Of a stretch of DNA of 64,000 nt, positions 1,208-53,604 are shown piece after piece; position 1 is the stretch's first letter; every line of letters starts with the position of its first letter. The notes beneath the pieces were generated by a model, which was not told the origin of the DNA, did not search any database, and saw only the letters and a program-made list of their open reading frames with translations. Source of the stretch: an uncultured Alphaproteobacteria bacterium (GTDB taxonomy: Bacteria > Pseudomonadota > Alphaproteobacteria > CAAHEQ01 > UBA3637); contig CANQUX010000004.1 of assembly GCA_947627155.1 (NCBI GenBank), forward strand, positions 22,889 to 86,888, in the 5' to 3' direction. The translations under genes and the position numbers were made by a program.

Positions 1208-1241
1208 CGCCCTTCTCGGGACATAACAAAAAGGAGTCTAA

Positions 1242-3804: not shown

Positions 3805-3815
3805 GGAGTTGACGA

Positions 3816-6345: not shown

Positions 6346-6367
6346 AAAAGCATAAAGGGGATTATTG

Positions 6368-8563: not shown

Positions 8564-8580
8564 TAAATAAGGAGAGATAA

Positions 8581-11505: not shown

Positions 11506-14022
11506 ATGCAGGAAAATTTAACGGAAAAATCACAAGGATTTATACAAAGTGCACAGTCGCTGGCCGTTCGAAACGGTAACCAGTTTTTAATGCCGGTTCA
11601 TTTATTGAAAGTGTTGTTAGATGATAAGGAGGGACAGGCCTCAACATTACTGATGTCGGCTGGTGTTGACGTAAATGCTTTGCGTGAACGGGTGAATGAA
11701 GAAGTAACGGCATTACCGCGCGTGTCGGGAAGCGGTGTGCAAACGGCGGCTGCGCAAGATTTTTTGAAAGTGTTGGATATGGCCGAACAAATGGCGCAAA
11801 AGGCCAAAGATTCCTATGTAACGACGGAACGTTTGTTGCAGGCGCTGATTGTTTTTAAATCATACGGCGTTGATGAGAAAAAATTAAATGCCGTTATTAA
11901 TGAAATGCGGCAGGGACGAACGGCTCAATCGCCCACGGCGGAAGATAATTTTGAAGCGCTTCAAAAATATGCCACGGATTATACCAAACGCGCGGCGGAG
12001 GGTAAGTTAGATCCGGTTATCGGTCGTGATGAAGAAATTCGGCGGACAATTCAAGTTTTATCGCGACGCACGAAAAATAATCCGATTCTGATCGGAGAAC
12101 CGGGCGTCGGTAAAACGGCCATTGTGGAAGGATTGGCGTTGCGCATTGTCAATAAAGATATGCCGGAAGCGTTAATGCATAAAAAACTGATGGCGTTGGA
12201 TATGGGGGCGCTTATTGCGGGTGCCAAATATCGGGGCGAGTTTGAAGAGCGCTTGAAAGCCGTGTTGGAGGAGGTAGCGGCATCGAACGGCGGCATTATT
12301 CTTTTCATCGATGAAATGCATACCGTGGTGGGTGCCGGTGCAACGGGCGGTTCAATGGATGCCTCCAATTTATTGAAGCCGGCGTTGGCGCGCGGAGAGT
12401 TGCATTGCGTAGGGGCAACCACGTTGAAGGAATATCAAAAATATATTGAAAAAGATGCCGCTTTTGCAAGGCGGTTTCAACCCGTTTATGTGGGCGAACC
12501 GCAAATTGAAGAAACGGTTTCCATTTTACGGGGATTGAAAGAGAAATATGAATTGCATCACGGTGTCAGAATTGCCGATGCGGCGTTGGTTTCGGCAGCG
12601 GTTTTATCCGATCGCTACATTACCGATCGCTTTTTACCCGATAAAGCTATTGACTTAATCGATGAGGCGGCAAGTAAACTGCGTCTTTCCATTGATTCGA
12701 AACCCGAGCATTTAGATGAAATCGATCGCCATTTGTTGCAGCTTAAAATTGAACGGGAGGCTTTGAAAAAAGAAACGGATTCGGCTTCTCACGAACGGTT
12801 GCAAAAAATTGAAGAGCAAATTCGAGCGTTGGAAAAAGAATCGCAAGAGGAAACAAATGTTTGGAATTTGCGCAAAAACAGTTTGCAGGAGGCCAATCGC
12901 ATTCGGGAAAGTTTGGATAGAGCCAAAACAGAGGTTGAAAAAGCCTTGCGTGACGGGGCTTATGAAAAAGCCGGTGAATTGCAATATAAAGAAATACCGG
13001 AAATGGAAAAACGGTTGGCGGCGCTGGACAGGCAAAATCAAAACTTGCCCTCTCTTGAAATCGTTACGCCGGATATTGTGGCATCTGTCGTGTCAAAATG
13101 GACAGGCATTCCAACCCAAAAACTGATGGGCAGCGAGCGCGAAAAACTCTTGCATTTGGAGGAAGAAATTGCCAAACGGGTTATCGGGCAGGAAAAAGCC
13201 GTCAAGGCGGTGGCCGATGCCGTTCGGCGTTCACGCGCCGGCTTGAACGATCCGAATCGCCCCATCGGTTCCTTTTTGTTTTTAGGCCCCACGGGGGTGG
13301 GTAAAACAGAGCTGGCAAAAGCGTTGGCAGCGTTTTTGTTCGATGAAGAAGCAGCCTATTTGCGTATTGATATGTCGGAATATATGGAAAAGCATGCCGT
13401 GGCTCGTTTAATCGGCGCGCCGCCGGGCTATGTGGGCTATGACGAAGGCGGTGTTTTAACCGAGGCTGTTCGCCGGCGTCCGTATCAGGTGATTTTGTTT
13501 GATGAAGTGGAAAAAGCGCACCCTGATGTTTTTAACGTTTTGTTGCAGGTGCTTGATGACGGGCGTTTAACTGACGGACAAGGGCGCACGGTTGACTTTA
13601 AAAACACGTTTTTAATTATGACATCTAACTTAATATCGGGCGGAAACGAAAAGGAGATATTGCCGAAACTCAAAAGTTTCTTTAAACCCGAGTTTATCAA
13701 TCGATTAGATGAAATTATCGTGTTTCGGGCACTTCAAAAAGAAGATATTCGAAAAATTGTCGATATTCAAATTCATCGACTTCAGGAGCGGTTGAAAGAT
13801 CACAAAATAGAACTTAAATTAGATGATGCGGCAAAAGATTGGTTGGCCGAAAACGGTTATGATACCGAATTCGGCGCCCGGCCGTTGAAACGGTTGATTC
13901 AACAAGAGGTTGAAAATCCGCTTGCAACGGCACTTTTGGAAGGCCGCGTGAAAGACTGTTCCGTTGCAAAATTGTTTGTCAAAGGTGATAAACTGGAAAT
14001 TGCAGACGAAACAGACAAATAA
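11506..14022 (+). CDS. clpB: ATP-dependent chaperone ClpB.
   Basis: 838 aa with an N-domain, two AAA+ modules ('[15 protein letters not shown]' and '[15 protein letters not shown]') and a middle coiled-coil. The N-terminus '[14 protein letters not shown]' resembles alphaproteobacterial ClpB. Confidence 0.95.
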
Positions 14023-14185: not shown

Positions 14186-14890
14186 ATGCGTTTTATAAAA
14201 AAATTTTTTTCAAAAGATTTAAATAAAGCTTTTGTACGGGCTTTTGAAAAAGGCTTCTATCAAAAGGCATTGCATTATGCGCAAAAAGGCGCCAATCCCA
14301 ATGCCAAAAATTTTGAAGGAAACACTTTTTTGCATTACTATGTTGCGGCTTATGTTCATGTGCCGGCACGTGAGTTGAAGGCGTTTCATTTACCCCCGGA
14401 ACCCGATGAAAACGTATTGGCGCAAATGAAAGAATTAGGCGCCGATATGGATTGTTTAAATCGTTATAAGCAAACACCGTTGGAAATGGCATTGGAAAAA
14501 GATGATCCGTTTATGGTTTCCGTTTTAATTCGAGCGGGTGCTGATAAAGAACATCGCAATAAAAACGGATTAACGCCGTTGCAAAATGCCGTTTATCACG
14601 GAATGGGTCGTTGTATGCGCATTTTGGTGCGTATGGGTGCCGATATTGAAGCAGAATTAACAACAGCCTCTTCTTTAACGCATTTGGCGGAAAAAGGAAA
14701 AGAAGTTTTCGGCAAGTTTGCACATACGAATTTTGAAAGAGTTGACATGATTTTGCAAGAATTGAAAGAAAAGGGATTTAACGTTGATAAAACGCCGAAG
14801 CCGAAAGAAATAACGGGCTTAGCCATTGTTGAACCCGCTTTCGATATTCAAGTGATTAAAAATTTGCAAAATCAAAATACACGTTCTTAA
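14186..14890 (+). CDS. Ankyrin-repeat protein.
   Basis: Ankyrin units of the 'G.TPLH.A...G' type are visible: 'NGLTPLQNAVYHGMGRCMRILVRMGADIE' and 'YKQTPLEMALEKDDPFMVSVLIRAGAD'. Confidence 0.8.
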   Translation: MRFIKKFFSKDLNKAFVRAFEKGFYQKALHYAQKGANPNAKNFEGNTFLHYYVAAYVHVPARELKAFHLPPEPDENVLAQMKELGADMDCLNRYKQTPLEMALEKDDPFMVSVLIRAGADKEHRNKNGLTPLQNAVYHGMGRCMRILVRMGADIEAELTTASSLTHLAEKGKEVFGKFAHTNFERVDMILQELKEKGFNVDKTPKPKEITGLAIVEPAFDIQVIKNLQNQNTRS

Positions 14891-14905
14891 ATAAAGGCAA
14901 AAATA

Positions 14906-15556
14906 ATGAATGATTTTTTAAACAGTAACAGATTATTGAGTGAATCAATATGCTCTGATGATATTGTCGGTGTTCGAACGGCATTAGACAGAGGAGCTCA
15001 TTTGTCGGGAGTTGTTTTATTGGATGATAATATGCATACCGTGGAATGTGCCGTGTTAAATTTGCCGTTAAATCAAGCTTTTAATGAAAAAGTTTCCGAT
15101 GAAATTATCACGCTTTTAAAAAAAGCGGGTGCCGGTTGTGAAATTCCCAATATTTACAGATGTTCGGCACTTTATTTTGCATCGGCAAACGGGTTTTGTG
15201 CTTTGGCGCAAAAACTTGTTCAGGAGGGCAGTAAAATTGATGCGCGTAATTTGTTCGGTGAAACCCCGCTGCATGTGGCCATTCGGTCAGGACAACAAAA
15301 AATGGTTCAACTGTTGTGTGAAATGGGAGCCAATATATTTTTATCCGATAAAAGCGGGCGAACACCGCTTAAATTGATTGCTTTACTTAAAGAATCAAGA
15401 AAATACGGTCGCAAAAATATCAGCCGGCAACAGCTTGATGAAATGTATCGCATTTTAATCAATTCCAAGCAAATGCAAAAAGTTGAACCTGTTCGAATTT
15501 CTTCTCAAAAACCGAAAATTTTGCTTCGTTTTCAAAAAGAAAGGGTTTATGCATGA
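14906..15556 (+). CDS. Ankyrin-repeat protein.
   Basis: 'FGETPLHVAIRSGQQKMVQLLCEMGANI' and 'SGRTPLKLIA' are ankyrin units. It overlaps the next gene by 4 nt. Confidence 0.8.
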   Translation: MNDFLNSNRLLSESICSDDIVGVRTALDRGAHLSGVVLLDDNMHTVECAVLNLPLNQAFNEKVSDEIITLLKKAGAGCEIPNIYRCSALYFASANGFCALAQKLVQEGSKIDARNLFGETPLHVAIRSGQQKMVQLLCEMGANIFLSDKSGRTPLKLIALLKESRKYGRKNISRQQLDEMYRILINSKQMQKVEPVRISSQKPKILLRFQKERVYA

Positions 15557-16578
15557 CAGAGAGTGAAGAGAGCGTGGAATCACAGGTGCGGAAAAATAAG
15601 CAGGAAGAAAAAATTTTTGTCATTAAACGACTGTTCCTGTCTTATTTGATTCAACAATTTAAAAAATCGCATCCGGAACATTTTTCGCATAAAGTCTTTG
15701 CCGATTATTATCAAAAACTGGTTGAAACAGAGCAATTGCAAGAGCAGTTTATGCTTTTTATTGACGAAAAAACAGAAAAAAAGGTTCAGGAAAAACCATC
15801 GTTTTTGCAAAAAGGCAAAACGTTTCTTACAAATTTATTCCGCAAAAAAACACCGGCGGATTATCAAAAAATAATTGCCGATCGGTTATATGATGAGTAT
15901 CTTAAAAACATTCTTTTGAAAAAGCCGATATCGACGAATGCGGTTTATTCCCTGCTTGAAAAATGCGACACAACGGAGTTTTATATCAAATCACCTTATA
16001 CGGTTTTCGGAGATTTGACGCCGTTAACTTTTGCTTGCAAGGTTAATGATTCGAGCTTGGTTCATAAGCTTCAAAGATTAAATGCCGATGTGAATTTTCC
16101 CGACAGTGATTTAAATTTACCGCTTCATTTATCGGTGCAATGGGGGCGTTATGAAATTGTTCAATCCTTACTGATGAGTGATGAAATTGATAAAGAGTGT
16201 CCGGATTATAAAACCGGCAGAACGCCTTTACAGGAGGCTGCTTTTTGCGGATATGCCGATATGATGGGATTGTTGCTGATGAACGGTGCGCGGTTTGAAG
16301 ATCCCGAAAAATTAGCGGCTTTGGCTCGAAAAGGAAAAATGTATCGGATGTCAACGGATAAGAAAGAAGATTTTGAAAAAAGAAATTTTGAAAATGTTTT
16401 GGAAATGATTCACTATTATGCCGATCAAAAAAATGAAAAACATCAATCGGCCGAAATGACCGAAAAAACAGAAACAATCTCTATGCAAAATAAACCCGTT
16501 AAAATTATGTCGGATCAGCACCTAAATCAACTCATACGAACGGGGTTAGGCTTCAATTTATCGCGGGAGCATACTTAA
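15553..16578 (+). CDS. Ankyrin-repeat protein.
   Basis: 'DLNLPLHLSVQWGRYEIVQSLLMS' and 'TGRTPLQEAAFCGYADMMGLLLMNGA' are ankyrin units. It is the third gene of a tandem ankyrin trio. Confidence 0.75.
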   Translation: MTESEESVESQVRKNKQEEKIFVIKRLFLSYLIQQFKKSHPEHFSHKVFADYYQKLVETEQLQEQFMLFIDEKTEKKVQEKPSFLQKGKTFLTNLFRKKTPADYQKIIADRLYDEYLKNILLKKPISTNAVYSLLEKCDTTEFYIKSPYTVFGDLTPLTFACKVNDSSLVHKLQRLNADVNFPDSDLNLPLHLSVQWGRYEIVQSLLMSDEIDKECPDYKTGRTPLQEAAFCGYADMMGLLLMNGARFEDPEKLAALARKGKMYRMSTDKKEDFEKRNFENVLEMIHYYADQKNEKHQSAEMTEKTETISMQNKPVKIMSDQHLNQLIRTGLGFNLSREHT

Positions 16579-26209: not shown

Positions 26210-26358
26210 AAAAGGTATTTTTAAAACAAAAGAGCGCTCTTTTTCCGGGGCGCTTTTTTATTGTTTTTTTTAGCGAGTTAATTAAGGAAAGGCCACCGGA
26301 AATACCTCTTGTTTTCTTTATTGATGAATGTTGGAAGGAATAGAGTATTAACACTTTT

Positions 26359-26418
26359 CCCTCTATCGGCGGGTGTGACAGACGGCTTTATGTCGTCTGG
26401 TGCTATGGGTGAAAGGGG
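26359..26418. repeat. Solo copy of a ~60 bp MITE-like palindromic repeat (family with 'CCCTCTATCGGCGG ... CCGATAGGGG' termini).
   Basis: CCCTCTATCGGCGGGTGTGA, then the palindromic core CAGACGGCTTTATGTCGTCTG, then CTATGGGTGAAAGGGG. The same family occurs at 52481, 52704, 53063, 55101, 55191 and 55373. Confidence 0.55.
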
Positions 26419-26442
26419 AAAAGTAACGGTTTATTTTTAAGA

Positions 26443-26478
26443 GTGTTGCACAAATTAAACGTACGTTTTTTGCAACAC
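26443..26478. promoter_or_regulatory. Nested-palindrome operator-like site upstream of pilin-adhesin gene A.
   Basis: GTGTTGCA, then caaatt, then AAACGTACGTTT (a perfect 12 bp palindrome), then ttt, then TGCAACAC. The outer 8 bp arms are a perfect inverted repeat. The same architecture is found at 30073-30102 and, degenerate, at 53403-53435. Confidence 0.5.
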
Positions 26479-26590
26479 TTTTTTTTGATTTTTGTAAAAA
26501 AAATTTATTTTAAGTGGAAATGATTGATTTTTCGACTGTTTTTTAAGGGTGATTTTTTGCCTTTTGAAGGCAATTTTGACCCCTGAATCC

Positions 26591-26623
26591 GCGTTGCATT
26601 AAAGGTACGTTTAATTGTATACT
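26591..26623 (+). promoter_or_regulatory. Conserved promoter box of pilin-adhesin gene A.
   Basis: TTGCAT (26594-26599), then 17 nt, then GTATAC or TATACT. The spacer TAAAGGTACGTTTAATT is itself a near-palindrome. The 26-mer is identical to the one at 53549-53574. Confidence 0.45.
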
Positions 26624-26650: not shown

Positions 26651-28012
26651 ATGACCATGCAATCAAAAAAACAAATTCAAAATCAATCCCAAAGTGGCCG
26701 TTCAATGGTTGAAATGCTGGGTGTGTTGGCGATTATTGCTATTCTGTCCATCGGCGGGATTGTCGGATTCCGATTGGCAATGAATTATTATCAAGCCAAT
26801 CAAATTGCCCATGAAATGAATATCATGCGCACCGATGCGCAGATAAAAATCGCCCAAGGCGCGGAGGAATTAACCCTCGGTGATCCGTATGACAGCGGAA
26901 ATATTCAATTTAACGGATATAAAACCGATTTTGATTGTCTTTATATGGAAACGGAAACGTCAGAACCCGAACTTGCTTCCTGTGCCGTTGCAAATGCCTA
27001 TTATATTGAAATGCAAAAAATTCCCGAAGGCATTTGCAAACCGCTGGCGAATTTAATTGATAAAATGGATAACGAAATTGCTTTTTATATCAATGGGAAA
27101 TCGGTTGATGCGGCAGAGGGAGAAAAAGGCGCTTGCCTTGGAGAAGAGAATATATTAACGGTGATCTTCGGTGCCGATTCGGATTCGGAGGCGATTAAGT
27201 GTAATGATGATCCCGATTGTCCCGATAACTTACCGATTTGTCATGAACATTTGTGTGTGGAGTGTGAAACGGATGAAGATTGCCCCTATAACACACAATA
27301 TTGTGAAGGAAATGCTTGTCAAACGTGTCCCGATAATCAAATATGGGGCGGTGCAGGAAAAGGTTGTGTGGAATGTTTAACATATGAAGATTGCACAGAT
27401 CCCGAAAAACCCAAATGTGAGCAAACTACAAACAAGTGCGTAGCGTGTCCGCCGAAATCGGTCTTTTATGAGGGCGAATGCTATGAATATGAATGTCGCA
27501 CCAACGAAGATTGCGCTGATAAAGGTGATGGCTATTATTGTCATGCCGAAGACGGAGATCGCACGTCTGACGGAGGCACGAACTATTCCGAATGGATAGA
27601 CAAACCGGGACAATATCTCGGCGGGAAATGCAAAAATGCCAGTCAAAGCAAAATGACGACGCCTGATGATGTTCCCTATGTGGTTTCTCAAGAAAAAATG
27701 GATTGGTGGTCTGCACAGCGTTTTTGTGAAGTACTTCATATGAGAACCGCCTCACGAAGAGATTTCGGTTGTGAAAATACAATAACTGATACTGATTGTG
27801 CTACTATAGATTGTTGTAAAAATGAAAAACTTGAATATCTTGATGAACATCATTTTCCGCGTGTCCCTGTTTGGTTAGAGTTAGTTACAGATCCGACTGA
27901 CAGATTATATGGACGAGCTATCAGTTTTGGTACAAAAAATAACACAAATATAGATTCGGATTTTCCGGCTTGGGGGGAAACAACGTCAAATTATGCTTTC
28001 TGTCAACCTTAA
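26651..28012 (+). CDS. Modular minor pilin/tip-adhesin candidate A. It consists of a class-III signal pilin domain, a Cys-rich stalk, and a lectin-like C-terminal domain.
   Basis: RBS AAAGGGAG 7 nt before the ATG at 26651. Leader 'MTMQSKKQIQNQSQSG|RSMVEMLGVLAIIAILSIGG' with Glu at +5. The middle region has repeated 'C..DEDCP' modules. The C-terminus, 'MDWWSAQRFCEVLHMRTASRRDFGC', is conserved with the paralog at 53605. Confidence 0.7.
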   Translation: MTMQSKKQIQNQSQSGRSMVEMLGVLAIIAILSIGGIVGFRLAMNYYQANQIAHEMNIMRTDAQIKIAQGAEELTLGDPYDSGNIQFNGYKTDFDCLYMETETSEPELASCAVANAYYIEMQKIPEGICKPLANLIDKMDNEIAFYINGKSVDAAEGEKGACLGEENILTVIFGADSDSEAIKCNDDPDCPDNLPICHEHLCVECETDEDCPYNTQYCEGNACQTCPDNQIWGGAGKGCVECLTYEDCTDPEKPKCEQTTNKCVACPPKSVFYEGECYEYECRTNEDCADKGDGYYCHAEDGDRTSDGGTNYSEWIDKPGQYLGGKCKNASQSKMTTPDDVPYVVSQEKMDWWSAQRFCEVLHMRTASRRDFGCENTITDTDCATIDCCKNEKLEYLDEHHFPRVPVWLELVTDPTDRLYGRAISFGTKNNTNIDSDFPAWGETTSNYAFCQP

Positions 28013-29366: not shown

Positions 29367-29807
29367 TTAGCTTTGTTTGAATTCAACAGCGCTCATTTTT
29401 GCAGAGGCGCATCCGTCATTTTTACCCAAAATGCTGGCACCGGCTTTGCAAACGGCATCTGTCGGAAATTCAATATCTAATTTTACAATACCTTTTTTCA
29501 AATCTTCTTCTGAAGAAGAGGTATAAGTAATTTTAGCGCCACCGGGGGTTGTACTGCTGCCGGAATTAATTAAACCGGAACTGGCTAACGTGGGGGTTGA
29601 CCAATTATTGCCCATGGCGCTCGCCGTTTGATAGCTGGAATAAATAACCACGGCAAATTTATTGGCCATATCCAGTGCTTCATTGGCGCGATAACGATTC
29701 ATTGCCATGGAATAACCGGCAATACCGCCAATGGATAAAACGCCGATAATGGCTAAAACGCCCAGCATTTCAACCATTGACCGGCCTGATTCGTTTGTTC
29801 TTTTCAT
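29367..29807 (-). CDS. Type IV pilin, major-pilin-like (PilS-like).
   Basis: Leader 'MKRTNESG|RSMVEMLGVLAIIGVLSIGGIAGY' with Glu at +5. The C-terminus 'CKAGASILGKNDGC' is a disulfide-bonded D-region pair. 146 aa. An AAGGA RBS lies before the second ATG; the alternative start is 29822. Confidence 0.7.
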   Translation of the reverse strand: MKRTNESGRSMVEMLGVLAIIGVLSIGGIAGYSMAMNRYRANEALDMANKFAVVIYSSYQTASAMGNNWSTPTLASSGLINSGSSTTPGGAKITYTSSSEEDLKKGIVKLDIEFPTDAVCKAGASILGKNDGCASAKMSAVEFKQS

Positions 29808-29920
29808 TTTTTGTCCTTTCATTTATGTTGTTTTTTAAGCTCCCCGAGCCAAAAAACGTTTATTTTTAAGGCATTATTGCCTTATTTTCCCTATCGAGAG
29901 ATTTTTTTCTCTCATTTATG

Positions 29921-29950
29921 AGTATAAAATAAACGTCCCTTTAATTCACC
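29921..29950 (-). promoter_or_regulatory. Proximal conserved box upstream of the PilS-like pilin gene.
   Basis: On the minus strand it reads GGTGAATTAAAGGGACGTTTATTTTATACT. This is related to the TTGCATTAAAGGTACGTTTAATT(G)TATACT box of the two adhesin genes. Confidence 0.35.
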
Positions 29951-30072
29951 GTTTTTTTAGACAACTTTCCTTAAAAACAAGGGTTGAACCAGAAAAGCAA
30001 AAACTCAATAAAAATCAAAAAATTATGAAAAAAACAAAAAAAATGAAAAAAAGATAAAAAAATTAAAAAAAA

Positions 30073-30102
30073 GTGTTGCAAAAAACGGACGTTTAATGCA
30101 AC
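30073..30102. promoter_or_regulatory. Nested-palindrome operator-like site upstream of the PilS-like pilin gene.
   Basis: GTGTTGCA, then aaa, then AAACGGACGTTT, then aa, then TGCAAC. It lies ~270 nt 5' of the start codon and has the same architecture as 26443-26478. Confidence 0.45.
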
Positions 30103-32398: not shown

Positions 32399-33067
32399 AT
32401 GGCCGAAATAAATGAAAAAAATTTGAAGCAATCAGAAAGAATGATTTCCTGTCGGCTGAAACTCGGTTGTCGCGATGCCATGGATTTTTATAAAAAATTC
32501 AGTCAGAACGGTTTATTGTTTTCTTATCCGAAATATCAAAAGCATGAAAGCGGTGAGCGTCGGCTGAATGAAAAATCAGCCATTACTTATGCTAAAATTT
32601 TTAACGTGGATTGGATGTGGTTACTTTACGGCGAAGTGGAAAAATATGCCGATACGGTTTCCATTGATGTGGTTGATGCCGTTGCCTGTTGCGGAAACGG
32701 ACATGTAAATTTTGAAACGCATATTCTCGGTCAGCAAATGTTAACGGTTTCGGCATTGCATCAAATAACGAGTGTGAATCCGGTGCATATTAAAATTTTA
32801 AAAGTTGTCGGCGACAGTATGGAACCGACCATCAGCAATAATGATTTTGTTTGGGTGGATATTTCCTGTCATACGCCGACGGGTGACGGTATTTATTTGT
32901 TTTGTATCGGGGATATGTTGGTTGTCAAGCGCGTACAAATCAATCCGTTTGATCAATCAGTACAGATTTTATCGGACAATGCAAAATATCAGCCGATTCG
33001 GGCAGAAAATTATCAAACCGTTAAAACGGTAGGGCGTGTGATTTCTTTTACCAAAATGATCGGATAA
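32399..33067 (+). CDS. S24 peptidase-family repressor (LexA/phage CI-like).
   Basis: The C-terminal domain has 'VVGDSMEPTI' (the Ser nucleophile) and 'VVKRV' (the Lys). The N-terminal ~80 aa are HTH-like. There is no adjacent integrase or phage genes. Confidence 0.65.
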   Translation: MAEINEKNLKQSERMISCRLKLGCRDAMDFYKKFSQNGLLFSYPKYQKHESGERRLNEKSAITYAKIFNVDWMWLLYGEVEKYADTVSIDVVDAVACCGNGHVNFETHILGQQMLTVSALHQITSVNPVHIKILKVVGDSMEPTISNNDFVWVDISCHTPTGDGIYLFCIGDMLVVKRVQINPFDQSVQILSDNAKYQPIRAENYQTVKTVGRVISFTKMIG

Positions 33068-36136: not shown

Positions 36137-37774
36137 TTACGCAAGTTCTGCGCCGTTTGTGCGATTTAACAGATAATTAGATTCTTCATTGGTTTCAACA
36201 AGTTGAGTACCGGCCAGTTTTAATGTTGTTAACCCGCCGCCGGATTCGTTTGTTTTGCCGGATTCTTCGGCATTTGAATGCGTATCAGCGTGTTGCGAGA
36301 CCGTATTGTCGGAAGCAATTTTGTTTTCGTTCGGCACTTTCGGCGCGGCCGGGTTTGCTGCTTTTTCGGTATTGTCAGTCGCCTTGTCAGTTGCCTTGTC
36401 GGCTTTTTGTTCGGTAGCAGCTTTTTGTTCGGTGGCAGATTGTTCGTTGGAATCTTGTGCTTTTTCCTGATTATCAGGTGTTTGATATTTACTGACATCT
36501 ATGCCGGCCATTTGAACAATCTTTTGATCAACATTTTTATTCTGAACAACTTCTTTTATTTTTGTGTCAATGGATTGAGAAATATTCCTCGCTTTTATTC
36601 TTTCTGGTTCTGATAAACTGGTATTTTCTGACCATTCTTTGAGAATCTTTACAGTTTTTGCTGCATTTTTTAATGCCTCAACTTTTTGCTCTTTTGGGGA
36701 TAATTTAGTTGATTTTTCATTCTTGGAATTCTCTCGGGATATTTTCTCAAGTTTAGCTATATCTTCCGAAGACCAGTTGTTTTCTTTTGCCAATTCTTTC
36801 CATTCTTCAAGCTTTTTTTTGTGCAGCATCTCATCCATTTTAGCAATATTTTCATCAGAAGCTCCCAAAATTTTTGCTGTCTTGACAATGGCTTTCAAAT
36901 CATTTGAATTGATAGTGTCTATGAGGTTGTTTTTGTCCTCTTCTACTCTTTGCTCTATTGATTCACCGTTAGAATTTTTTTCAGTATAGCTTTTTTCTAC
37001 GCTTCCGCCTTGTTTCTCTACTTTATCTCTTGTGGCCGCCATGGCTTTTGTCTGAATATTTGCGTTCCGAGCAGCTACACGATATTTGTCGGCAGCTTCT
37101 GTATCTCCCCGCTCACGCGCCTCTTCTTCTAAACGCTGAAATTTTTCTGCTTCTTGTTTTTTTTGCTCTATTCCTTCTTGCAATGATTGTAATCTGTATG
37201 CCTGTTGTAATTCCGGCGGTAATTTTTCGGCATTTTTATCAATTTGTTGCATCCAGTTAAGCATCATTTGCGGCGTTTCGTTTATATGACGCAAAATTTC
37301 TTCTTTGGAGCTGTGTTCCCAATCAAAATGATCATATTTGCTCCAAAAATCACTGTAATCTTTAGCGGCTTGCAACTTAATTTGTGCAATTTGTTGCGCT
37401 GTTAAAACCTGTTGCTGATCTTGATGAATTTGCGCTTGTATTAACGCTTCTTTTTTATCGTTTCCCGACGTTTTTACGCTTTTAAACGATTCTTGGTAGT
37501 AAGAGTATACCTGGGGGGGGGTATTCTGCATCGCATTTTCCCGGCTTCCTGCCGGCAATTCCGCCAAAGCCGTACGCAGCATTTCATCACAGGCGGTTTT
37601 GGTTGTTTCATTCGGATTTGTGTGATACGAATCGATTAAAGAAGCTAAATCTGCCATTTGCGCTTGAAATTTTGCCATTGATTCGTTTGTTAAAACAACG
37701 GTTGCCTTGGGTTGAGACATTATCGGTGCTTTGGGTAAATTTAAACGTGATAGGACTTGCGTGGTTGATGGCAT
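36137..37774 (-). CDS. Low-complexity coiled-coil protein (Gln/Lys/Glu-rich); secreted effector-like candidate.
   Basis: 545 aa with no TM segment and no enzyme motifs. 'ATEQKAATEQKADKATDKATD' repeats near the C-terminus. Confidence 0.45.
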   Translation of the reverse strand: MPSTTQVLSRLNLPKAPIMSQPKATVVLTNESMAKFQAQMADLASLIDSYHTNPNETTKTACDEMLRTALAELPAGSRENAMQNTPPQVYSYYQESFKSVKTSGNDKKEALIQAQIHQDQQQVLTAQQIAQIKLQAAKDYSDFWSKYDHFDWEHSSKEEILRHINETPQMMLNWMQQIDKNAEKLPPELQQAYRLQSLQEGIEQKKQEAEKFQRLEEEARERGDTEAADKYRVAARNANIQTKAMAATRDKVEKQGGSVEKSYTEKNSNGESIEQRVEEDKNNLIDTINSNDLKAIVKTAKILGASDENIAKMDEMLHKKKLEEWKELAKENNWSSEDIAKLEKISRENSKNEKSTKLSPKEQKVEALKNAAKTVKILKEWSENTSLSEPERIKARNISQSIDTKIKEVVQNKNVDQKIVQMAGIDVSKYQTPDNQEKAQDSNEQSATEQKAATEQKADKATDKATDNTEKAANPAAPKVPNENKIASDNTVSQHADTHSNAEESGKTNESGGGLTTLKLAGTQLVETNEESNYLLNRTNGAELA

Positions 37775-37916
37775 TTACACTCTCCTTAATAAATTCTTAA
37801 TAATTGTATCACAAAAAAGAATCCCTGTCAACGAAAAAAAGATAACTGCTTTTAGTGTTTGTTTTCATTAAAAAAATCCGACAATAATGCCGGATTTTTT
37901 ATCGCTTTTTAAGGCT

Positions 37917-38153
37917 TTATTTTTTAAATAAATTGCAATGGCAATGCCCCATTGTGGCAATTTCCTGCTCATGCTCGCCGCACGGACAAAAACCGCGTGA
38001 AACATCACACGGGCAATGCCCCTGACATGCGTTAATGCACCGATTGATAATTTTATCGGCAAACGGTGTGAGTTGATATCCTTTCGCTTTGGCATAAAGT
38101 TCCAAGGCGTGCTTAAAGTGATTGTTGTTGTTTAAAATTTCATCTTGTTCCAT
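37917..38153 (-). CDS. Small Cys-rich protein resembling the ferredoxin-thioredoxin reductase catalytic chain.
   Basis: 'CQGHCPC ... CPCGEHE ... CHC' matches the CPC/CHC spacing of FtrC-like proteins. 78 aa. Confidence 0.4.
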   Translation of the reverse strand: MEQDEILNNNNHFKHALELYAKAKGYQLTPFADKIINRCINACQGHCPCDVSRGFCPCGEHEQEIATMGHCHCNLFKK

Positions 38154-38168
38154 TTTTTTTCTCCTTGA

Positions 38169-38675
38169 TTATAATATAAAATGAATGCCGTATAAAACAA
38201 ATGAAGCATATAGACCGGCAATAACATCATCTGCCATCACACCGAATGCATTATGTGTTTTTCTGTCAATAATGGAGGCCGGCCACACTTTCACAATGTC
38301 AAAAAAACGAAATAACGCGAATCCGATAAAATAATCATACCATATTAAACCGCTTTGTGCAACCCATAAAAAGGTGAGCAGTTGCCCCACTGTTTCATCA
38401 ATGACCACATAGCCCGGATCGGTTGCTTTTTGCGCTTTTAAAACAACGCTTGTTGCTTGCTGCCCGATGAAAAACAAAAGAATACCGGAAATGAGAATGC
38501 CCCAAAAACCGAGCGGTGCCAGCACAAAAACAAGCGGTAACGTGAAAAACGAACCGGCCGTGCCGGGCGCTTTGGGAGATAACCCCGAAAAGAACCATGT
38601 TGCCACGGCAAAAGCCGCTTTTATTTTCATCGGCTGATTTTTAATGTCGGCAAAATGAACGCGTTGCTTTGTCAT
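38169..38675 (-). CDS. pgpA: Phosphatidylglycerophosphatase A.
   Basis: 'LSPKAPGTAGSFFTLPL' is the PgpA signature. 168 aa membrane protein. Confidence 0.8.
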   Translation of the reverse strand: MTKQRVHFADIKNQPMKIKAAFAVATWFFSGLSPKAPGTAGSFFTLPLVFVLAPLGFWGILISGILLFFIGQQATSVVLKAQKATDPGYVVIDETVGQLLTFLWVAQSGLIWYDYFIGFALFRFFDIVKVWPASIIDRKTHNAFGVMADDVIAGLYASFVLYGIHFIL

Positions 38676-38681
38676 AACCGA

Positions 38682-40028
38682 TTATGCCTTCGGTGCGGGG
38701 TTTGCGGGCATTGCCGGGGCACGCAATCCGGTAACAACTTGCTGTTTACTTTCTTGCTGTTCTTCTGGCGCCGGTTGTTGTTCCGTTTGTTGCGTCGCTT
38801 GTGATGTCGCTGGCTCTGATGTTGTTGCAGCTGCGGCTTTTTCCGTTGACTCGGCTTGTGTTTCATCAGTTGTTGCAATTTCTTCCGTGTCTTCGGATGA
38901 ATTTGTAATTTCACTTAAACTGGCGCGAATTCTTTCAAGCTCCTCATCAAAATCGGAAGTTTCTTCCTGAGCGGCTTCTTCCGTTGCGGCTGAATTTTCT
39001 TGTGTTTTTGCCTCTTCGGGTTGCGTTTTGGTCGATTCGCTCGGTGTTGCCTCAACGGCAGGCGCTTGTTTTGATTTTAACGGCACTTTTTCAACCGGAT
39101 GCGGTGCCGGATCGGTTTCGCCGTCTTTTAAATCAAAATACGCACTTAAAAACGAAGCCAAATCAGGCAATTCATCTTTGGGTTCGGCATTATTAAAGCC
39201 TAAAAGAAAAATGCCTTTGGAGCGAAAATATTCAACGGCTTGCTTGGTATTTAAAACGCGTCCGTCCGTAACCAATATGGCCGATAACACTTCGGAATTC
39301 GGTTCGGATTTGGCCAATGATTTTGAAGCGCCGATTAAATCTTGCGCCAAACGTTCCATAACGCCGCCCTCCGAATACCATCCGCCGGCCGTGACATCGT
39401 CGGTAAATTCAACCGACCAATTCACTTTCTTTTTGTTGACAATTTCAATTAAAACGGCGCGCGCATCGGTTGAAATGGCCATCGGTACCCGAAAGCCTTC
39501 CAGAAGAATGTGTTGAAAAATTTCCACCTTATATTTTCGCGCCAACGCCGCCGCTTGTTTAATCATTTGCGCTAAATTGGCATGACTCTTTTCACCGGAA
39601 ACCACTTCATCTTTTTGGTTGGGCAACCGCGGCGCCACATAACGATTGATTTGCATGGTGGAAGGCATTTTGCGCGGCATATGATAAATCGGCTTCGATT
39701 CTTTTAACTCGAATTTTGACTGAACTGCTTTTTTCATTTTTATTTTCGGCTTTAATTTTTTCCAATTCAAATGATAGAAAAAATGCCAGCCCCAAAGCCA
39801 AAGCGGAATCCAAGCAATCATCATGAAAAGTAATAATGTATCGGGCAGGGTGTTAATGCGCCATTTGTAATTGAAAAAATCGGTATATCGTTTTTCCCAA
39901 TCTTGCGCCGACAGGAAATTGAAATCTAAAAAATAGCCGATCAGCGGTAGAATAATGTAACCGTATATAATGGCCCACAAGAAGAATGTTAATATCAGTT
40001 TTATCGGTTGTGTTTTTGCTTTTGCCAT
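38682..40028 (-). CDS. Membrane-anchored hypothetical protein with an acidic Gln/Glu/Thr-rich C-terminal tail.
   Basis: Two N-terminal TM segments, a ~200 aa globular region, then 'EEAAQEETSDFDEELERIRASLSEITNSSEDTEE...'. No motif was identified. Confidence 0.45.
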   Translation of the reverse strand: MAKAKTQPIKLILTFFLWAIIYGYIILPLIGYFLDFNFLSAQDWEKRYTDFFNYKWRINTLPDTLLLFMMIAWIPLWLWGWHFFYHLNWKKLKPKIKMKKAVQSKFELKESKPIYHMPRKMPSTMQINRYVAPRLPNQKDEVVSGEKSHANLAQMIKQAAALARKYKVEIFQHILLEGFRVPMAISTDARAVLIEIVNKKKVNWSVEFTDDVTAGGWYSEGGVMERLAQDLIGASKSLAKSEPNSEVLSAILVTDGRVLNTKQAVEYFRSKGIFLLGFNNAEPKDELPDLASFLSAYFDLKDGETDPAPHPVEKVPLKSKQAPAVEATPSESTKTQPEEAKTQENSAATEEAAQEETSDFDEELERIRASLSEITNSSEDTEEIATTDETQAESTEKAAAATTSEPATSQATQQTEQQPAPEEQQESKQQVVTGLRAPAMPANPAPKA

Positions 40029-40040
40029 GGCTTTTCCCGT

Positions 40041-42128
40041 TTAGTTTCCTCTTGAATTGTTGTTGCGTATGTTCATTTGCGTGTTTACATTCTTTTCAAC
40101 ACCGTTTCGAGCATTGCTTAACTGTCGTTGTTGTTGTAAGACTTGTTGTTTTTTCTCATCATTGTCACGCTTTTTGGTTTCTAATTGTTGAGCTTTTGCC
40201 GTTAATTTGTCTTTATTCTCATTGTTAACGGGAACTTTGGTACCGTTTGGTAATTCCACAACGGGATTTTTTAAATTGCCTTTGACGGTTACTTTATCTA
40301 ACGGATCTAATTGGTTAGCTGCTTGTAAAGCTTCGTCGCGCAATTTGGCTTGCTCCGATGTTTGCACTGTTTTGGGCGCTGCCGCTTTCGGTACGGGTGC
40401 CTGTTGTTGCGGCTGCGGCGCTTGTTGTTGCTGCGGTGCCTGTTGTTGCGGCTGCGGTGCTTGCTGTTGATGTTGCGGCGCCTGTTGTTGCGGCTGTGGT
40501 GCCTGTTGTTGCGGCTGCGGCGCTTGCTGTTGCGGTTGCGGCGCCTGTTGTTGCGGCTGCGGTGCCTGTTGTTGCGGTTGCGGCGCTTGTTGTTGCTGCG
40601 GTGCTTGTTGTTGCGGCTGCGGCGCTTGTTGTTGATGTTGCGCCACCTGAATCGTTTGCATTTTCGCCGCTTGCGATGCTATTTCTTTTAATTCTTTTCC
40701 CATCAAAGCCAGGCCGGTTGCTTCATAAGCAACGTTTTTAAAGGGAGGCACTTGGGCATAATGAGTCATATAGGTGGTATAGCGTTTTTTTTGCGCTCGT
40801 GTCATTTTATTAAAATCAATCGTGCCGTTTTCATTTTTCGGTAAACCGGCCGCAAAATCGCGTTTTTCCTTTAATGCCTCTTCATATTTTGAATAAGGCC
40901 CCTTGGAGGGGATTTTTTTATAAGCAGGATCGTTTAATAACCATTCTTGCGTGTCATGCGCTAAAACGGCTGCCAGTTTCGGCATGCTTAACCCGTTGTT
41001 TCTTAAATTCGTATCAATAAATTCATTTCGCTTTGATTGCCGAATTTTATCGTTTTCTTTCATGTTGGCGTGAATTTGATTAAGCCATTCGGTTGCCATG
41101 TCAATGGGCGCCAAAAGAGCCAATTCCATTACTTGAAACATTAAATCTTCGGGATTTTTGCCGGAACCGACTTTTTCAAGACGGCTTAACCCTTTTTCAA
41201 AAATTTTTGAGCTGTCAATGGTTTTTAAATCATCTTTATTAACAGGCGCTTTGTCAAAATAACCGCTGCTGCCGTCACTTGTTTTGACATTAAAAGCTTC
41301 TTGCATTTCGGCTAAATCGGCTTGCTGTTTATCCGGTTCGGTAATGCCTTCTTTCAAGGCAGAATGAATCTCGTTGCCTTTTTGCACTTCTTCTTTTATT
41401 TCTTCCGGAGAGAGCGGCATCGGTTGTTGTGTCGCTTGCGCCGGTTGTTGCGGCTGCGCATGTTGCTCTTGCGGCTGTGATACCTTTTGTTGCGGCTGCG
41501 GCATTTGCACCTGCGCCGCTTGTTTTATCGGTTGTTGTACCGTTTGCATCGGTTGTTGCGGCTGCACTTGTTGCTCTTGCACCTGCGCCGCTGGCTTCGT
41601 CGGTTGTTGTGCCGCTTGCGTCGGTTGTTGCGGCTGCGCTTGTTGCTCCTGCGGCTGCGATACCTTCTGTTGCGGTACTTTTTCCGTCGGCGTTATGTTT
41701 TGTTGCAACTTGTCGGCTTGTAAATTGTTCGTGCTTGTTTTTTCAGAATTGAAAGCTTGCGGATATCTGCTTTTTGCCCAATCCACCCACGCCGATTTTT
41801 GAGCGAGAATGTTGGTTTCATGAAACGATAATGCATTCCCTTTTTCCTTTTTGTCATCAATTTGTTTAATAAGGGGAATTACCTGTGCCAACCGTTGCAC
41901 GCTTTGCTGATTTTGAATGGCCGATACCAGATTTCCCATTTCGGGTGATTGTAGTGCCAATTCTTTGAGTTTGCCTTTATCGCCCGATTTGACGGCTTCG
42001 GTCACATTTTTAATCTGTATTTTGCGTGCCGCCTCCGGAAAGTATTTCATTGCTTCCGTTAAATCGACCGTACTTTGTTGAATCAGTTGTTCCAATTGTT
42101 GATCACTTATAAACGCTTTTGCCATCAC
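40041..42128 (-). CDS. Gln/Pro-repeat protein carrying a conserved ~130 aa domain shared with the protein at 50607.
   Basis: There are 12 or more tandem 'QQQAPQP' units and 'QQPxxAAQVQ' repeats. The central 'DLMFQVMELALLAPIDMATEWLNQIHANMKEN ... WLLNDPAYKKIPSKGPYSKYEEALKEKRDFAAGLPKNENGTIDFNKMTRAQKKRYTTYMTHYA' aligns with the 50607 product. Confidence 0.6.
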   Translation of the reverse strand: MMAKAFISDQQLEQLIQQSTVDLTEAMKYFPEAARKIQIKNVTEAVKSGDKGKLKELALQSPEMGNLVSAIQNQQSVQRLAQVIPLIKQIDDKKEKGNALSFHETNILAQKSAWVDWAKSRYPQAFNSEKTSTNNLQADKLQQNITPTEKVPQQKVSQPQEQQAQPQQPTQAAQQPTKPAAQVQEQQVQPQQPMQTVQQPIKQAAQVQMPQPQQKVSQPQEQHAQPQQPAQATQQPMPLSPEEIKEEVQKGNEIHSALKEGITEPDKQQADLAEMQEAFNVKTSDGSSGYFDKAPVNKDDLKTIDSSKIFEKGLSRLEKVGSGKNPEDLMFQVMELALLAPIDMATEWLNQIHANMKENDKIRQSKRNEFIDTNLRNNGLSMPKLAAVLAHDTQEWLLNDPAYKKIPSKGPYSKYEEALKEKRDFAAGLPKNENGTIDFNKMTRAQKKRYTTYMTHYAQVPPFKNVAYEATGLALMGKELKEIASQAAKMQTIQVAQHQQQAPQPQQQAPQQQQAPQPQQQAPQPQQQAPQPQQQAPQPQQQAPQPQQQAPQHQQQAPQPQQQAPQQQQAPQPQQQAPVPKAAAPKTVQTSEQAKLRDEALQAANQLDPLDKVTVKGNLKNPVVELPNGTKVPVNNENKDKLTAKAQQLETKKRDNDEKKQQVLQQQRQLSNARNGVEKNVNTQMNIRNNNSRGN

Positions 42129-42187
42129 TTATTCTCCTTGACATAAATATGGTTCTATTATAGCACATTTTTACGGCTTGTCAAACG

Positions 42188-42823
42188 CTATATTTTTAAT
42201 CCTTTTAAAAATTTGGCAATTTTGGCGTTTTCCTCTTTGGCGGCCTCCGGCGTTAAAATGGAATTACCCGATGAATCAATTGTAATAATGGGTGAAAAAT
42301 AGGCCGGGTTGGAAATGAGTGTATCATAAGCTTTTTTGGCATCTTTTCGATACATAATAAAATAGCAGGACATGAGTTTATAGGCATCAATGTGGAAATG
42401 TTGCGCATTGATTTGATCACCGAACGTGCGCACCAGTTCTTTCCGCCGGTTTTCTTCCTGCCGGATTTCATTTAAAACCCGAGTTGTTTCCTTCAATAAT
42501 TCAACGTTACGTTTGTAAATGGTTTCTTCCTGTTGTTTGAGCTTATATTCCATATAATCCAAAATAATATCTTTCCAAAACGGTTGATCATTGTAGTTTT
42601 GCTGCACAATTCGCAAAATATCTTTGACCTCACAGGTATTAATATCTTTCACACTGCATAAATATGAAACAATGGCAGCAGATTCTTTTTCAGCCAACGC
42701 AACGGGAAAATTTTGAACGTTGTATTGCGTTATGTCAATGGTGAGCTGCGGCGCCGCCGATAAAACGCTGCGCTGTGCATAGAGCCGGGAATATAAGCCG
42801 TAAAGAATGTCATTTGCCGCCAT
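42188..42823 (-). CDS. Hypothetical protein.
   Basis: 211 aa, soluble, no motifs. It is co-oriented with the Gln-rich gene. Confidence 0.45.
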   Translation of the reverse strand: MAANDILYGLYSRLYAQRSVLSAAPQLTIDITQYNVQNFPVALAEKESAAIVSYLCSVKDINTCEVKDILRIVQQNYNDQPFWKDIILDYMEYKLKQQEETIYKRNVELLKETTRVLNEIRQEENRRKELVRTFGDQINAQHFHIDAYKLMSCYFIMYRKDAKKAYDTLISNPAYFSPIITIDSSGNSILTPEAAKEENAKIAKFLKGLKI

Positions 42824-42991
42824 GTTGTTTTTTCCTCCCTCGGATATTTTTTAAAAATTTTTTGACCGTTTCAACGGTTGTTTCTTTCAGTATAAGCATA
42901 AATTTTAAAAAATCTACTAAAAAGTGTTGTCTTTTTTAAAAATATGGTGTATTATGGTAGTATAAGGTTAATTATTTAAGGGGAAAAATCA

Positions 42992-44515: not shown

Positions 44516-44541
44516 TAACGCGATAAAAAAGAGGGCAGACG

Positions 44542-45876: not shown

Positions 45877-45891
45877 GGAGAAGGAGAAAAT

Positions 45892-52416: not shown

Positions 52417-52480
52417 ATCACTATTATCACATTTTTAATTTTTATTGCAATATATTTTTTGCTGTATATAAAAAAAGGGC

Positions 52481-53132
52481 GGGTGTGATGCACTGCGAAA
52501 AATAAGCCGATAGGGGGGGGAACGGACAGCAGGAAAGAGAAAGATTAACGATATTTCTTTCTCTTTTAATTTGCAGACGATAACTCTTTTCTCTTATTTC
52601 GGCGGGAAGTGCTATCCCGCATTTGTGGGATAGCGCGGTGTGCCGAAAATAATGTGATTCGGTAGGATATCACTCTATTATCTGTATATGGCACTTTCTT
52701 TTTCCTCTATCGGCGGATGTGGAGCGGCGCAATTGTGCCGCTCAACTATGGGTCGATAGAGGGAAAGGAACGGCAGGCTATCATTTTGGTAAAAGTGGTA
52801 AAGACAAGAGATATTTTTAGCCTCTTTGTTTATGAGTGGCACTTTCTCTTATTTTCGGCGAGAAGTGGCGGTGTGGGAAATGTGAATTGGCACGGTGGCA
52901 GAATAAAGACTGATTTTATTTTCTCCCCATTCGCAGGTGATAATTCTTCTTTCTTATTTTCGGCGGGAAGTGCTATCCCGCATTTGTGGGATAGCGCGGT
53001 GTGCCGAAAATAAGAAAAGAGGCGGTGAAAATGTGGCAATTTTAACGTTATTGCCGAATTTTCCCTCTATCGGCGGGTGTGATGCGCTGCTGAAAGGGGC
53101 GCTCCGCTATGGGCCGATAGGGGGAAAAATAA
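52481..53132. repeat. Left array of MITE-like palindromic repeats (three families) upstream of pilin-adhesin gene B.
   Basis: Family A, 'CTTATTTTCGGCGGGAAGTGCTATCCCGC...GGGATAGCGCGGTGTGCCGAAAATAAG', at 52593-52652 and 52953-53014 (identical), with a variant at 52846-52900. Family B, 'CCCTCTATCGGCGGGTGTGATGCGCTGC...GGGCCGATAGGGGG', at 53063-53125, with a partial copy at 52481-52521. Family C, 'CCTCTATCGGCGGATGTGGAGCGGCGCAATTGTGCCGCTC...CGATAGAGGG', at 52704-52763. Confidence 0.6.
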
Positions 53133-53580: not shown

Positions 53581-53604
53581 ATTTGCATTGAAAGGAAGCG
53601 AAAA

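Follow-up and report, generated by a model that had tools for sequence, protein, structure and literature searches.

Pilin-like genes and their upstream sites

The DNA analyzed here, called the window, is a stretch of 64,000 nucleotides from an uncultured Alphaproteobacteria bacterium (GenBank assembly GCA_947627155.1, contig CANQUX010000004.1), and it carries three dispersed pilin-like genes, designated A, B and C. Directly 5′ of each gene lies a short segment bounded by a distal and a proximal copy of one sequence motif. With a probability of roughly 70%, we consider that each pilin-like gene of the window is preceded in this way by an invertible DNA switch (inverton), the two motif copies being its left and right inverted repeats (IRL and IRR). 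The features concerned are as follows (loci used for comparison carry L numbers, C being L213):

Locus A
26443-26478, plus strand: putative left recombination site (IRL), core AAACG-TA-CGTTT at 26457-26468; the nested palindrome described earlier
26463-26606, plus strand: putative invertible segment, 144 nt between core centres, standard orientation, tentatively OFF or low
26585-26623, plus strand: putative right recombination site (IRR) with promoter-like elements, core AAAGG-TA-CGTTT at 26601-26612
26651-28012, plus strand: pilin-like gene A, 453 aa, prepilin-type N-terminus G/RSMVEMLGVLAII, Cys-rich C-terminal part

Locus B
53403-53435, plus strand: putative IRL, core AAACG-TA-CGATT at 53414-53425, inner arm TTTTGCAACAC
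53420-53564, plus strand: putative invertible segment, 145 nt, standard orientation, inner sequence type different from A
53543-53580, plus strand: putative IRR, core AAAGG-TA-CGTTT at 53559-53570
53605-55023, plus strand: pilin-like gene B, 472 aa

Locus C
30073-30102, minus strand: putative IRL, GTTGCATT-AAACG-TC-CGTTT-TTTGCAACAC, core at 30083-30094, then T8
29937-30088, minus strand: putative invertible segment, 152 nt, standard orientation, phased T-tracts at about 29998-30072
29921-29949, minus strand: putative IRR, GTGAATT-AAAGG-GA-CGTTT-ATTT-TATACT, core at 29931-29942, -10-like TATACT at 29921-29926
29367-29822, minus strand: gene C for a small pilin of 151 aa, or 146 aa counted from the second ATG

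All three genes showed the marks of type IV pilins, namely a leader ending in Gly, Glu at +5, a hydrophobic N-terminal helix and an assembly system, and all three carried G/RSMVEMLGVLAIIxxLSIGG. Gene C, small and highly conserved, is probably the major pilin, and A and B are large, Cys-rich, adhesin-like members of the family. An earlier note made from the letters alone (the sequence-only reading) had called C PilS-like, which holds in the R64 sense alone, that of the small major pilin of a type IVb system. Gene C is complete, has a putative switch to itself and is not a silent cassette.

The same reading had described a nested palindrome upstream of the three genes. At A it was found exactly as claimed, at 26443-26478, reading GTGTTGCA-CAAATT-AAACGTACGTTT-TT-TGCAACAC, with a perfect 8-bp outer inverted repeat and a perfect 12-bp inner palindrome. 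The degenerate left arm announced for B was also seen, directly 3′ of a terminator-like hairpin (53370-53392). For C the position was right, but the string quoted was one a too long: the 30 nt at 30073-30102 are GTGTTGCAAAAAACGGACGTTTAATGCAAC, and they read GTTGCATTAAACGTCCGTTTTTTGCAACAC in gene orientation because gene C lies on the minus strand. The sites precede the start codons of all three genes, as had been noticed, by 173-208 nt in A, 170-202 nt in B and 251-280 nt in C. The stretch said to be identical in A and B is real but 32 nt long (26585-26616 = 53543-53574) rather than 26. Its claimed overlap with a -35/spacer region was borne out, the proximal copy of the motif lying partly between a -35-like TTGCAT and a -10-like TATRCT. 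A second identical run of 27 nt (26467-26493 = 53424-53450) covers the distal right arm and the T-run, and a proximal copy, overlooked in that reading, was present at C too (core 29931-29942).

At locus A, the core centre of IRL falls between 26462 and 26463, with TTTTGCAACAC as the inner arm and GTGTTGCACAAATT, unconserved in homologues, as the outer arm. A T8/A8 block adjoins IRL inside the segment, and the CCCCTGAATCCGCGTTGCAT end adjoins IRR. The -35-like TTGCAT is at 26594-26599, and the -10-like TATACT (26618-26623) is fixed, outside the segment; the corresponding elements of locus B are TTGCAT at 53552-53557 and TATGCT at 53575-53580. At locus C, the central GA of IRR is the reverse complement of the TC at IRL. 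Inside switch C (about 29998-30072, minus strand), and also in L080, eight or nine T-tracts of 4-8 nt recur with a period of about 9.6 nt.

In gene orientation, two blocks were common to the three window loci and about 20 paralogues or orthologues in five other metagenome-assembled genomes (MAGs). The distal block, AAACGTACG(T/A)TTTTTGCAACAC, leads into T7-8 and a pattern of A/T tracts. The proximal block, GCGTTGCATTAAAGGTACGTTTAWTT, leads up to TATRCT. What lies between the two blocks fell into at least three types that could barely be aligned. The motif was kept 5′ of dozens of paralogues and orthologues in at least six closely related MAGs and, in a variant form, in further species, so that the conservation in related genomes on which the sequence-only reading had made its proposal depend was present. 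In the window, GTTGCA-N0-8-AAASGTMCGTTT had 5 matches vs 0.00 expected from shuffles, all 5′ of the three pilin-like genes, and the five matches to AAACGTACGTTT with at most one mismatch all lay at the three pilin loci. Of the 25 exact matches to the core AAACGNNCGTTT in 480 kb comprising the window and related loci, the pilin upstream zones, which make up 38 kb, held 23 and the remaining 442 kb held 2, an enrichment of about 130-fold. The core is thus tied to pilin genes and is no generic repeat; a generic repeat would have spoken against the earlier proposal. A metagenome-wide scan with TTGCANNAAASGTACGTTT returned 120 stretches, all of them single unrelated chance or coding matches without pilin genes, the pattern being too short at that scale, and a literature search for the motif gave nothing relevant.

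The outer palindrome did not hold up as a conserved recognition unit, since its left arm varies freely and its right arm is invariant. The left outer arm matched at 8/8 positions in A alone, at 7/8 in three others and at 6/8 or fewer in 17 of the 21 homologous loci. The proximal block consists of TTGCAT, a 17-18 bp spacer holding the core, and TATACT, TATGCT or TATACA, and by its sequence it looks like a sigma-70-type promoter; TTGCA serves as the -35 of other promoter-like sites in the window as well. As a cis element the motif is specific to the pilin genes, and it must be recognized in trans by a sequence-specific protein.

Inverted repeats and segment orientation

At all three window loci, IRL and IRR formed a pair flanking a short segment directly 5′ of the gene. 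Read in reverse complement, the distal block repeats the proximal one (pair identity 21/22 in L008 and 26/27 in L010), and wherever the core is asymmetric, the two copies are mirror images of each other (AGACG-TA-GGTTT and AAACC-TA-CGTTT in L010). Each site consists of the half-sites AAAsG and CsTTT, 5 bp each, around a 2-bp centre, with A/T runs and TGCA-containing arms outside. The spacing between core centres was 144 or 145 bp in nearly all loci of the window's clade and 152 bp in the C type, whatever the inner sequence (144 bp in A, 145 bp in B and 152 bp in C), and the segments of this clade used for comparison were all exactly 144 nt long.

Both orientations of the segment, between the same flanks, were found among homologous loci in three cases. 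The inner segment of the small-pilin locus L071 was 95.1% identical to the reverse complement of that of L024, from the same MAG, and 53.5% identical to it forward. In the small-pilin locus seen in three independent assemblies (L215, L216 and L217), the segment was 88.3% identical to the reverse complement of that of window A (52.4% forward). The third case was found in another species, where the 135-bp segments of L020 and L036, from the same MAG, shared 91.1% identity in reverse complement and 57.3% forward, between right flanks that were 96.8% identical. The half-site markers swapped ends together with the segment: AAAGG, the left half of IRR, became CCTTT at IRL, and CGATT at IRL became AATCG at IRR. 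This movement of the half-site variants with the segment matches the prediction of inversion.

Two observations were made on single loci of this set. The assemblies of L215, L216 and L217 all end exactly 326 nt 5′ of the flipped small-pilin gene, about 45 nt outside IRL; the assembly may have broken there because of repeats or of mixed orientations. In L053, an orphan switch (3784-3960, minus strand) has both sites and the A/T block, with neither a -10 nor a pilin gene behind it, and looks like a decayed copy.

Site type, proposed mechanism and alternatives

The sequence AAAsG-NN-CsTTT, that is, two inverted half-sites around a 2-bp core as in the sites of serine DNA invertases, was present in all pairs. 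The central dinucleotide was the most variable position among loci and species (TA, AT, TC, GA, GT, TT). Within every well-formed pair, the centres of IRL and IRR were identical as inverted repeats, and the arms differed at 1-2 of 10 positions. The matched pairs include at least 11 loci with non-palindromic centres (TC/GA, GA/TC, GT/AC, TT/AA), the exceptions being poor or direct-repeat pairs; in the window, the centres are TA/TA in A and B and TC/GA in C. Serine recombinases of the Hin/Gin family exchange 2-nt overhangs, and the centres of partner sites must match. The gix site of phage Mu (AF083977), TTATCCAAAACC-TC-GGTTTACAGGAA, has the core AAACC-TC-GGTTT, identical at 10 of 12 positions to AAACG-TC-CGTTT of window C.

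Taken together, the variable left arm, the inverted pair, the two orientations, the matched centres and the likeness to gix imply a site-specific recombinase and not a dimeric transcription regulator. The dedicated dimeric regulator proposed in the sequence-only reading therefore stands as a trans-acting, sequence-specific reader of the motif but not as an operator-bound regulator of transcription, an invertase being most likely. As to the class of the enzyme, we lean towards a serine recombinase.

The sites share with those of the Hin, Gin, Cin and Pin systems (hix, gix) the layout of two inverted sites that are imperfect palindromes around a 2-bp crossover core, A-tracts leading into C(C/G), and a centre identical in partner sites. 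In the Hin system of Salmonella flagellar phase variation, the promoter lies on the invertible segment. Unlike in the Hin/Gin systems, however, the window segments measure 144-152 bp, compared with about 1 kb (hin) or about 3 kb (the G segment of phage Mu), and they contain no recombinase gene and no recognisable enhancer. The pilin switches are many per genome, whereas the Hin/Gin type is a single one, and the arms outside the core, with their TGCA motifs, differ from those of hix and gix.

A trans-acting arrangement is known from Bacteroides fragilis, in which Mpi, a serine "master" recombinase, inverts at least 13 short scattered promoter regions and thereby controls the surface structures of a gut commensal (PMC5903667). 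The inverted repeats of this species are reported to be hin-like (Patrick et al. 2003, cited in bioRxiv 10.1101/2022.10.31.514637). The present loci differ from that system in belonging to Alphaproteobacteria and not Bacteroidota, in concerning type IVb and adhesin-like pilins instead of capsule loci, and in having sigma-70-like promoters, the -10 of which apparently lies outside the invertible segment in the window's clade. The Mpi repeat consensus is taken to be ARACGTWCGT, for which a literature search gave nothing relevant; AAACGTACGT would fit it exactly, and this is treated as a lead only.

The fimS element of Escherichia coli (FimB/FimE) resembles the putative pilin switches in being a short invertible element directly 5′ of a pilin or fimbrial gene, with ON/OFF phase variation via inverted repeats. 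It is turned by tyrosine recombinases at 9-bp repeats, contains the whole promoter within 314 bp and has the recombinase genes adjacent, whereas the window sites look like those of serine recombinases and have no adjacent recombinase. The R64 thin pilus, also of type IVb, shares with the window a TcpQ-like protein, a secretin, a PilO-type protein, an ATPase and a platform protein, as well as a small major pilin next to large pilins with variable C-terminal parts, the variation arising by site-specific inversion, as proposed for the window. In the R64 shufflon, a tyrosine recombinase (Rci) rearranges the coding 3′ ends of one pilV gene; here, in contrast, the genes are numerous and complete, and each would have a promoter switch to itself.

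The mechanism that we propose calls for a recombinase gene in another part of the genome. Its product, most likely a small Hin/Gin/Mpi-type serine invertase, would bind IRL and IRR, cut at the central dinucleotide and turn the segment of 144-152 bp. The segment would carry the upstream half of the promoter: one end has a -35-like TTGCAA together with an A/T-rich block resembling an UP element, the other a weaker TTGCAT that lacks such a block. The -10-like TATRCT would stay fixed beside the gene. With one half of the promoter on the segment and the -10 fixed, orientation would decide which half meets the -10. The predicted flipped junction for A is ...AAAAAAAAGTGTTGCAAAAAACGT/ACGTTTAATTGTATACT, and higher expression is predicted with AAAAAAAAGTGTTGCAA beside the -10. 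A single recombinase acting on many switches would result in phase-variable, combinatorial expression of the major pilin and many adhesin-like pilins. We infer in the same manner that inversion would take place within the population of this organism.

Of the two segment ends in the window's clade, GTGTTGCAA comes after A8/T8 tracts resembling an UP element and is homologous to the promoter end of L036, and GCGTTGCAT comes after CCCCGAATCC and is homologous to the non-promoter end of L036. In L036 itself, an internal promoter (TTGACA-N17-TAAAAA, with TGC before it) reads through IRR into the pilin gene, and in L020 it is directed away from it. The commoner orientation, with the A/T block and TTGCAA pointing away from the gene, is that of all three window copies, and therefore the window loci were taken as OFF or low; the flipped L071 and L215-217, both major-pilin genes, would be ON. 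This assignment is tentative, its chances being somewhat less than even. L075 and L080 have one switch between two divergent pilin 5′ regions, with an internal promoter TTGATT-18-TATAAT in L075, a layout that suggests a toggle between two genes.

A wider and rather doubtful proposal is that of a genome-wide pilin inverton regulon, in which one trans-acting Gin/Mpi-like serine invertase would flip dozens of fixed 144-bp cassettes. The -35/UP half alone would be swung between a dead end and a fixed -10 (or, in L075 and L080, between divergent genes), the pair-specific centres would prevent cross-recombination, and RHH_4 proteins would be directionality or accessory factors.

Several results weigh against an active switch. 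At no single locus were both orientations seen: independent assemblies, which show the majority orientation only, always agreed for a given gene, those of L207-210, L211-212, L213-214, L218-221 and L225-228 being all standard and those of L215-217 all flipped. The three inversions found lie between paralogues or species, and so may be rare evolutionary events without any active switch. In the window's clade, about 29 loci were standard and 2 flipped. L012, from a distant relative, has direct and not inverted copies, and the P0224 loci of another species have pilin genes without any switch. A TTGCA -35-like hexamer is found at both ends of the segment in the window's clade, at the same distance from the fixed -10, so that a difference in expression is not obvious and depends on the A/T-rich block and the homology to L036. 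Pfam scans found no recombinase encoded in the 64-kb window, and a search of 547 kb of related loci with a Hin query found one in L078 alone. This gene has one in-frame TGA, and no inverted-repeat pair is present in its intergenic region. It lies at 93-689 of L078, from a roe-deer gut MAG, and encodes Resolvase and HTH_7 domains in 198 codons, about 375 bp 5′ of a small pilin gene.

The agreement among same-locus assemblies also favors the strongest of the alternatives, in which the cores would be operators of a dimeric or tetrameric regulator with a distal site about 145 bp upstream that works through cooperative binding or DNA looping, and the inversions rare accidents between short repeats. 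The proximal core has dyad symmetry and occupies the spacer of the promoter-like elements TTGCAT (-35) and TATRCT (-10), its centre lying about 10-11 bp 5′ of the latter, and half-sites kept across several species around a variable 2-bp centre are found in many operators. The looping systems gal, ara, lac and deo likewise have a palindromic site twice, about 100-150 bp apart, one of them overlapping the promoter. The fixed spacing would fit this explanation too, as would the strongly phased T-tracts of the C-type segment, suggestive of intrinsically bent DNA (TT periodicity z 5.5 in window C and 7.3 in L080, reached by 0 of 300 shuffles). In addition, L004, L006 (two copies), L204 and L205 have small ribbon-helix-helix DNA-binding genes (RHH_4, PF13467) next to, and divergent from, pilin genes that carry the motif. 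However, the A and B segment types showed no significant T-tract phasing. Apart from an S24/LexA-like protein, Pfam scans found no regulator encoded close to the window loci, in line with the sequence-only reading, and the window encodes no RHH_4 homologue. An operator leaves unexplained the reversal of the whole segment exactly between the core centres in three independent cases, the centres that match within pairs and differ among loci of one genome, and the mirror-image inner arms. Looping operators are not mirror-image composite sites bounding an inverted segment, and their central bases need not match. We regard this explanation as unlikely.

The blocks could also be functionless, either remnants of promoter duplication in a fast-growing gene family, with gene conversion maintaining their likeness, or the termini of a small mobile element of the MITE type (miniature inverted-repeat transposable element). 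The family is large and recombining, with relatives encoded in 571 of the 591 genomic stretches scanned; leader segments are tandemly duplicated in L002, L006 and L007, CO.O65 (loci L025 and L056) has a direct promoter-like duplicate upstream, REP-like repeats (repetitive extragenic palindromes) surround gene B, and the orphan switch of L053 has no gene. This is nevertheless very improbable, for the two blocks hardly vary even though their surroundings and the sequence that separates them have diverged into types that cannot be aligned, the half-sites and the two-site layout persist in species with all flanks different, the segment length is constant to the base, and only 2 of the 25 exact core matches in the 480 kb lie outside pilin upstream zones.

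A scarcely credible alternative makes the distal element a hairpin (stem GTGTTGCA/TGCAACAC, then T8) that would serve as a Rho-independent terminator or insulator against read-through from the upstream gene. The RNA of site A folds at -14.3 kcal/mol (z -3.3) and that of site C at -12.4 (z -3.8), each followed by U8, and C lies directly 3′ of msrAB, which has no other obvious terminator. The fold was not retained in B (-5.5, z -0.6), L006 (-5.7), L014 (-6.5) or the C orthologue L080 (-2.4, z +0.7), however, and the left arm varies without compensation in the right arm. Loci A and B already have separate upstream terminator-like hairpins (26228-26259 and 53370-53392), the proximal copy would stay unexplained, and a terminator scan made no call at the distal element. 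A sigma-54 type promoter (-24/-12), as used by many type IV pilin genes, can be dismissed: ACGTACG-TTTT-TTGCA agrees with TGGCACG-N4-TTGCW at 9 of 12 specified positions, TTGCA included, but the near-invariant GG at -24 is missing (A and B have CG there, and every variant either CG or TG), the element is palindromic and recurs inverted at the proximal site, and no enhancer-binding protein is encoded in the window, the Sigma54_activat match at 11506-14022 being a weak side match in a ClpB-type AAA protein.

Other candidates were rejected in the course of the analysis. The spacing of a CtrA box was wrong (TTAA-N8-TTAA, not N7), and the box was missing from many copies. An EcfG-type promoter was 1-3 nt off in spacing and absent at C. 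A Pap-type methylation switch was discarded on the varying central tetranucleotide (GTAC, GATC, GGAC, GGTC, GAAC). A divergent promoter at the distal site was discarded for want of a conserved -10 on the other strand and of a divergent gene in the window, and DNA bending as a general feature on T-tract phasing that was significant in the C type alone.

Should the reading as invertible switches be right, the three dispersed pilin genes would be individually phase-variable and not jointly repressed or activated. The strategy, known from the capsules of gut Bacteroides and from E. coli type 1 fimbriae, would here serve a numerous family of type IVb and Cys-rich, adhesin-like pilins without Pfam or PDB relatives, in a gut lineage of uncultured Alphaproteobacteria. 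Multi-locus invertible promoter switches are known as a kind, and none was found described for this lineage and gene family. The recognition sequence AAAsG-NN-CsTTT with its TGCA-bearing arms and the fixed cassette length would make such switches findable, and their ON and OFF states countable, in metagenomic reads; pilus and adhesin expression of an uncultured commensal would thereby become measurable in vivo. A caution for motif-based regulon inference would also follow, in that a conserved dyad 5′ of co-functional genes may be a recombination site and no operator.

Pilin family, assembly genes and further features

The type IVb pilus assembly genes lie at the start of the window, in a layout like that of the R64 thin pilus or TCP, and constitute the machinery that the window pilins would use:

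1-9708, plus strand: type IVb pilus assembly operon, its first open reading frame (ORF) running off the window start
1242-2168, plus strand: TcpQ-like protein (Pfam)
2152-3804, plus strand: secretin (Pfam)
3816-5144, plus strand: PilO-type accessory protein (Pfam)
5119-6345, plus strand: ORF without a Pfam match
6365-8563, plus strand: T2SSE ATPase (Pfam)
8581-9708, plus strand: T2SSF platform protein (Pfam)

Pfam found no domain above threshold in the pilin family: the N_methyl match to the window pilins was below it (E 0.02-0.03; 0.033 for A and none for B). In a PDB sequence search, pilin A had no match and pilin C weak pilin matches, and no clear relative was found there. The database relatives of A numbered at least 261 proteins, often several per contig, and 3455 proteins resembled C at E<=1e-10. 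The closest loci came from MAGs of the rabbit gut that bear the label "uncultured Alphaproteobacteria"; the rabbit-gut assemblies with these loci are ENA analyses ERZ27249386, ERZ27249389, ERZ27249395 and ERZ27249684.

The large pilins A and B contain Cys-rich repeats with CxxC-type spacing, which may be adhesin domains, and a conserved C-terminal region with WWSAxRFC. Tandem duplications of the leader peptide (repeated ...KKQIQNQSQSG... modules before the G/RSM cleavage motif) were seen at the pilin 5′ ends of L002, L006 and L007, and the promoter and ribosome-binding-site region is duplicated 5′ of the pilin genes in L025 and L056. This gene family appears prone to recombination at its 5′ ends.

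The RHH_4 genes (89-93 aa) were found beside switch-bearing pilin genes in a sister MAG, sometimes paired between two pilin genes, and their products may serve either for local regulation or as accessory factors of the switch:

L006, 1244-1513 and 2005-2286: RHH_4
L004, 638-883: RHH_4
L204 and L205, 5001-5270 and 3523-3792: RHH_4
L058: RHH_4

In the window, the sole regulator-like gene near the pilin loci encodes an S24 peptidase (LexA/CI-like, 32399-33067), 2.3 kb from switch C, and the core motif is absent 5′ of this gene.

In switch B (53479-53591), a GGAGG is followed after 8 nt by an ATG that opens a short ORF (MQYQQVIKSLF...) running through IRR; the same segment type was seen in L001, L003, L006, L008, L014, L018, L021 and L030. 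The end of this ORF is unconserved and the ORF is missing from the A-type segment, so it is probably no real leader peptide, and an upstream ORF was rejected as an explanation of the segment because it is confined to one segment type and has a variable end.

Two families of REP/MITE-like palindromic repeats, such as TTTTCCCTCTATCGGCGG...GCCGATAGGGGGAAAA and TTCTTATTTTCGGCGGGAAGTGCTATCCCGC..., were located at 26359-26420, 52478-53140 and 55095-55400. They flank gene B in inverted orientation, with 72-nt arms that are 90% complementary and 1964 nt apart, and one copy lies 5′ of switch A; CCCTCTATCGGYGG had 5 matches vs 0.31 expected. The same element precedes the A-type switches in L207-L212 and L014.

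Seven large ORFs follow one another at 36140-47950 (545, 168, 448, 695, 211, 507, 444 and 686 aa region), and the PgpA-like one of 168 aa is the only one with a Pfam match. Three consecutive ankyrin-repeat proteins are encoded at 14186-16578, and ankyrin-repeat genes also flank the pilin loci in L223, L224 and L234.

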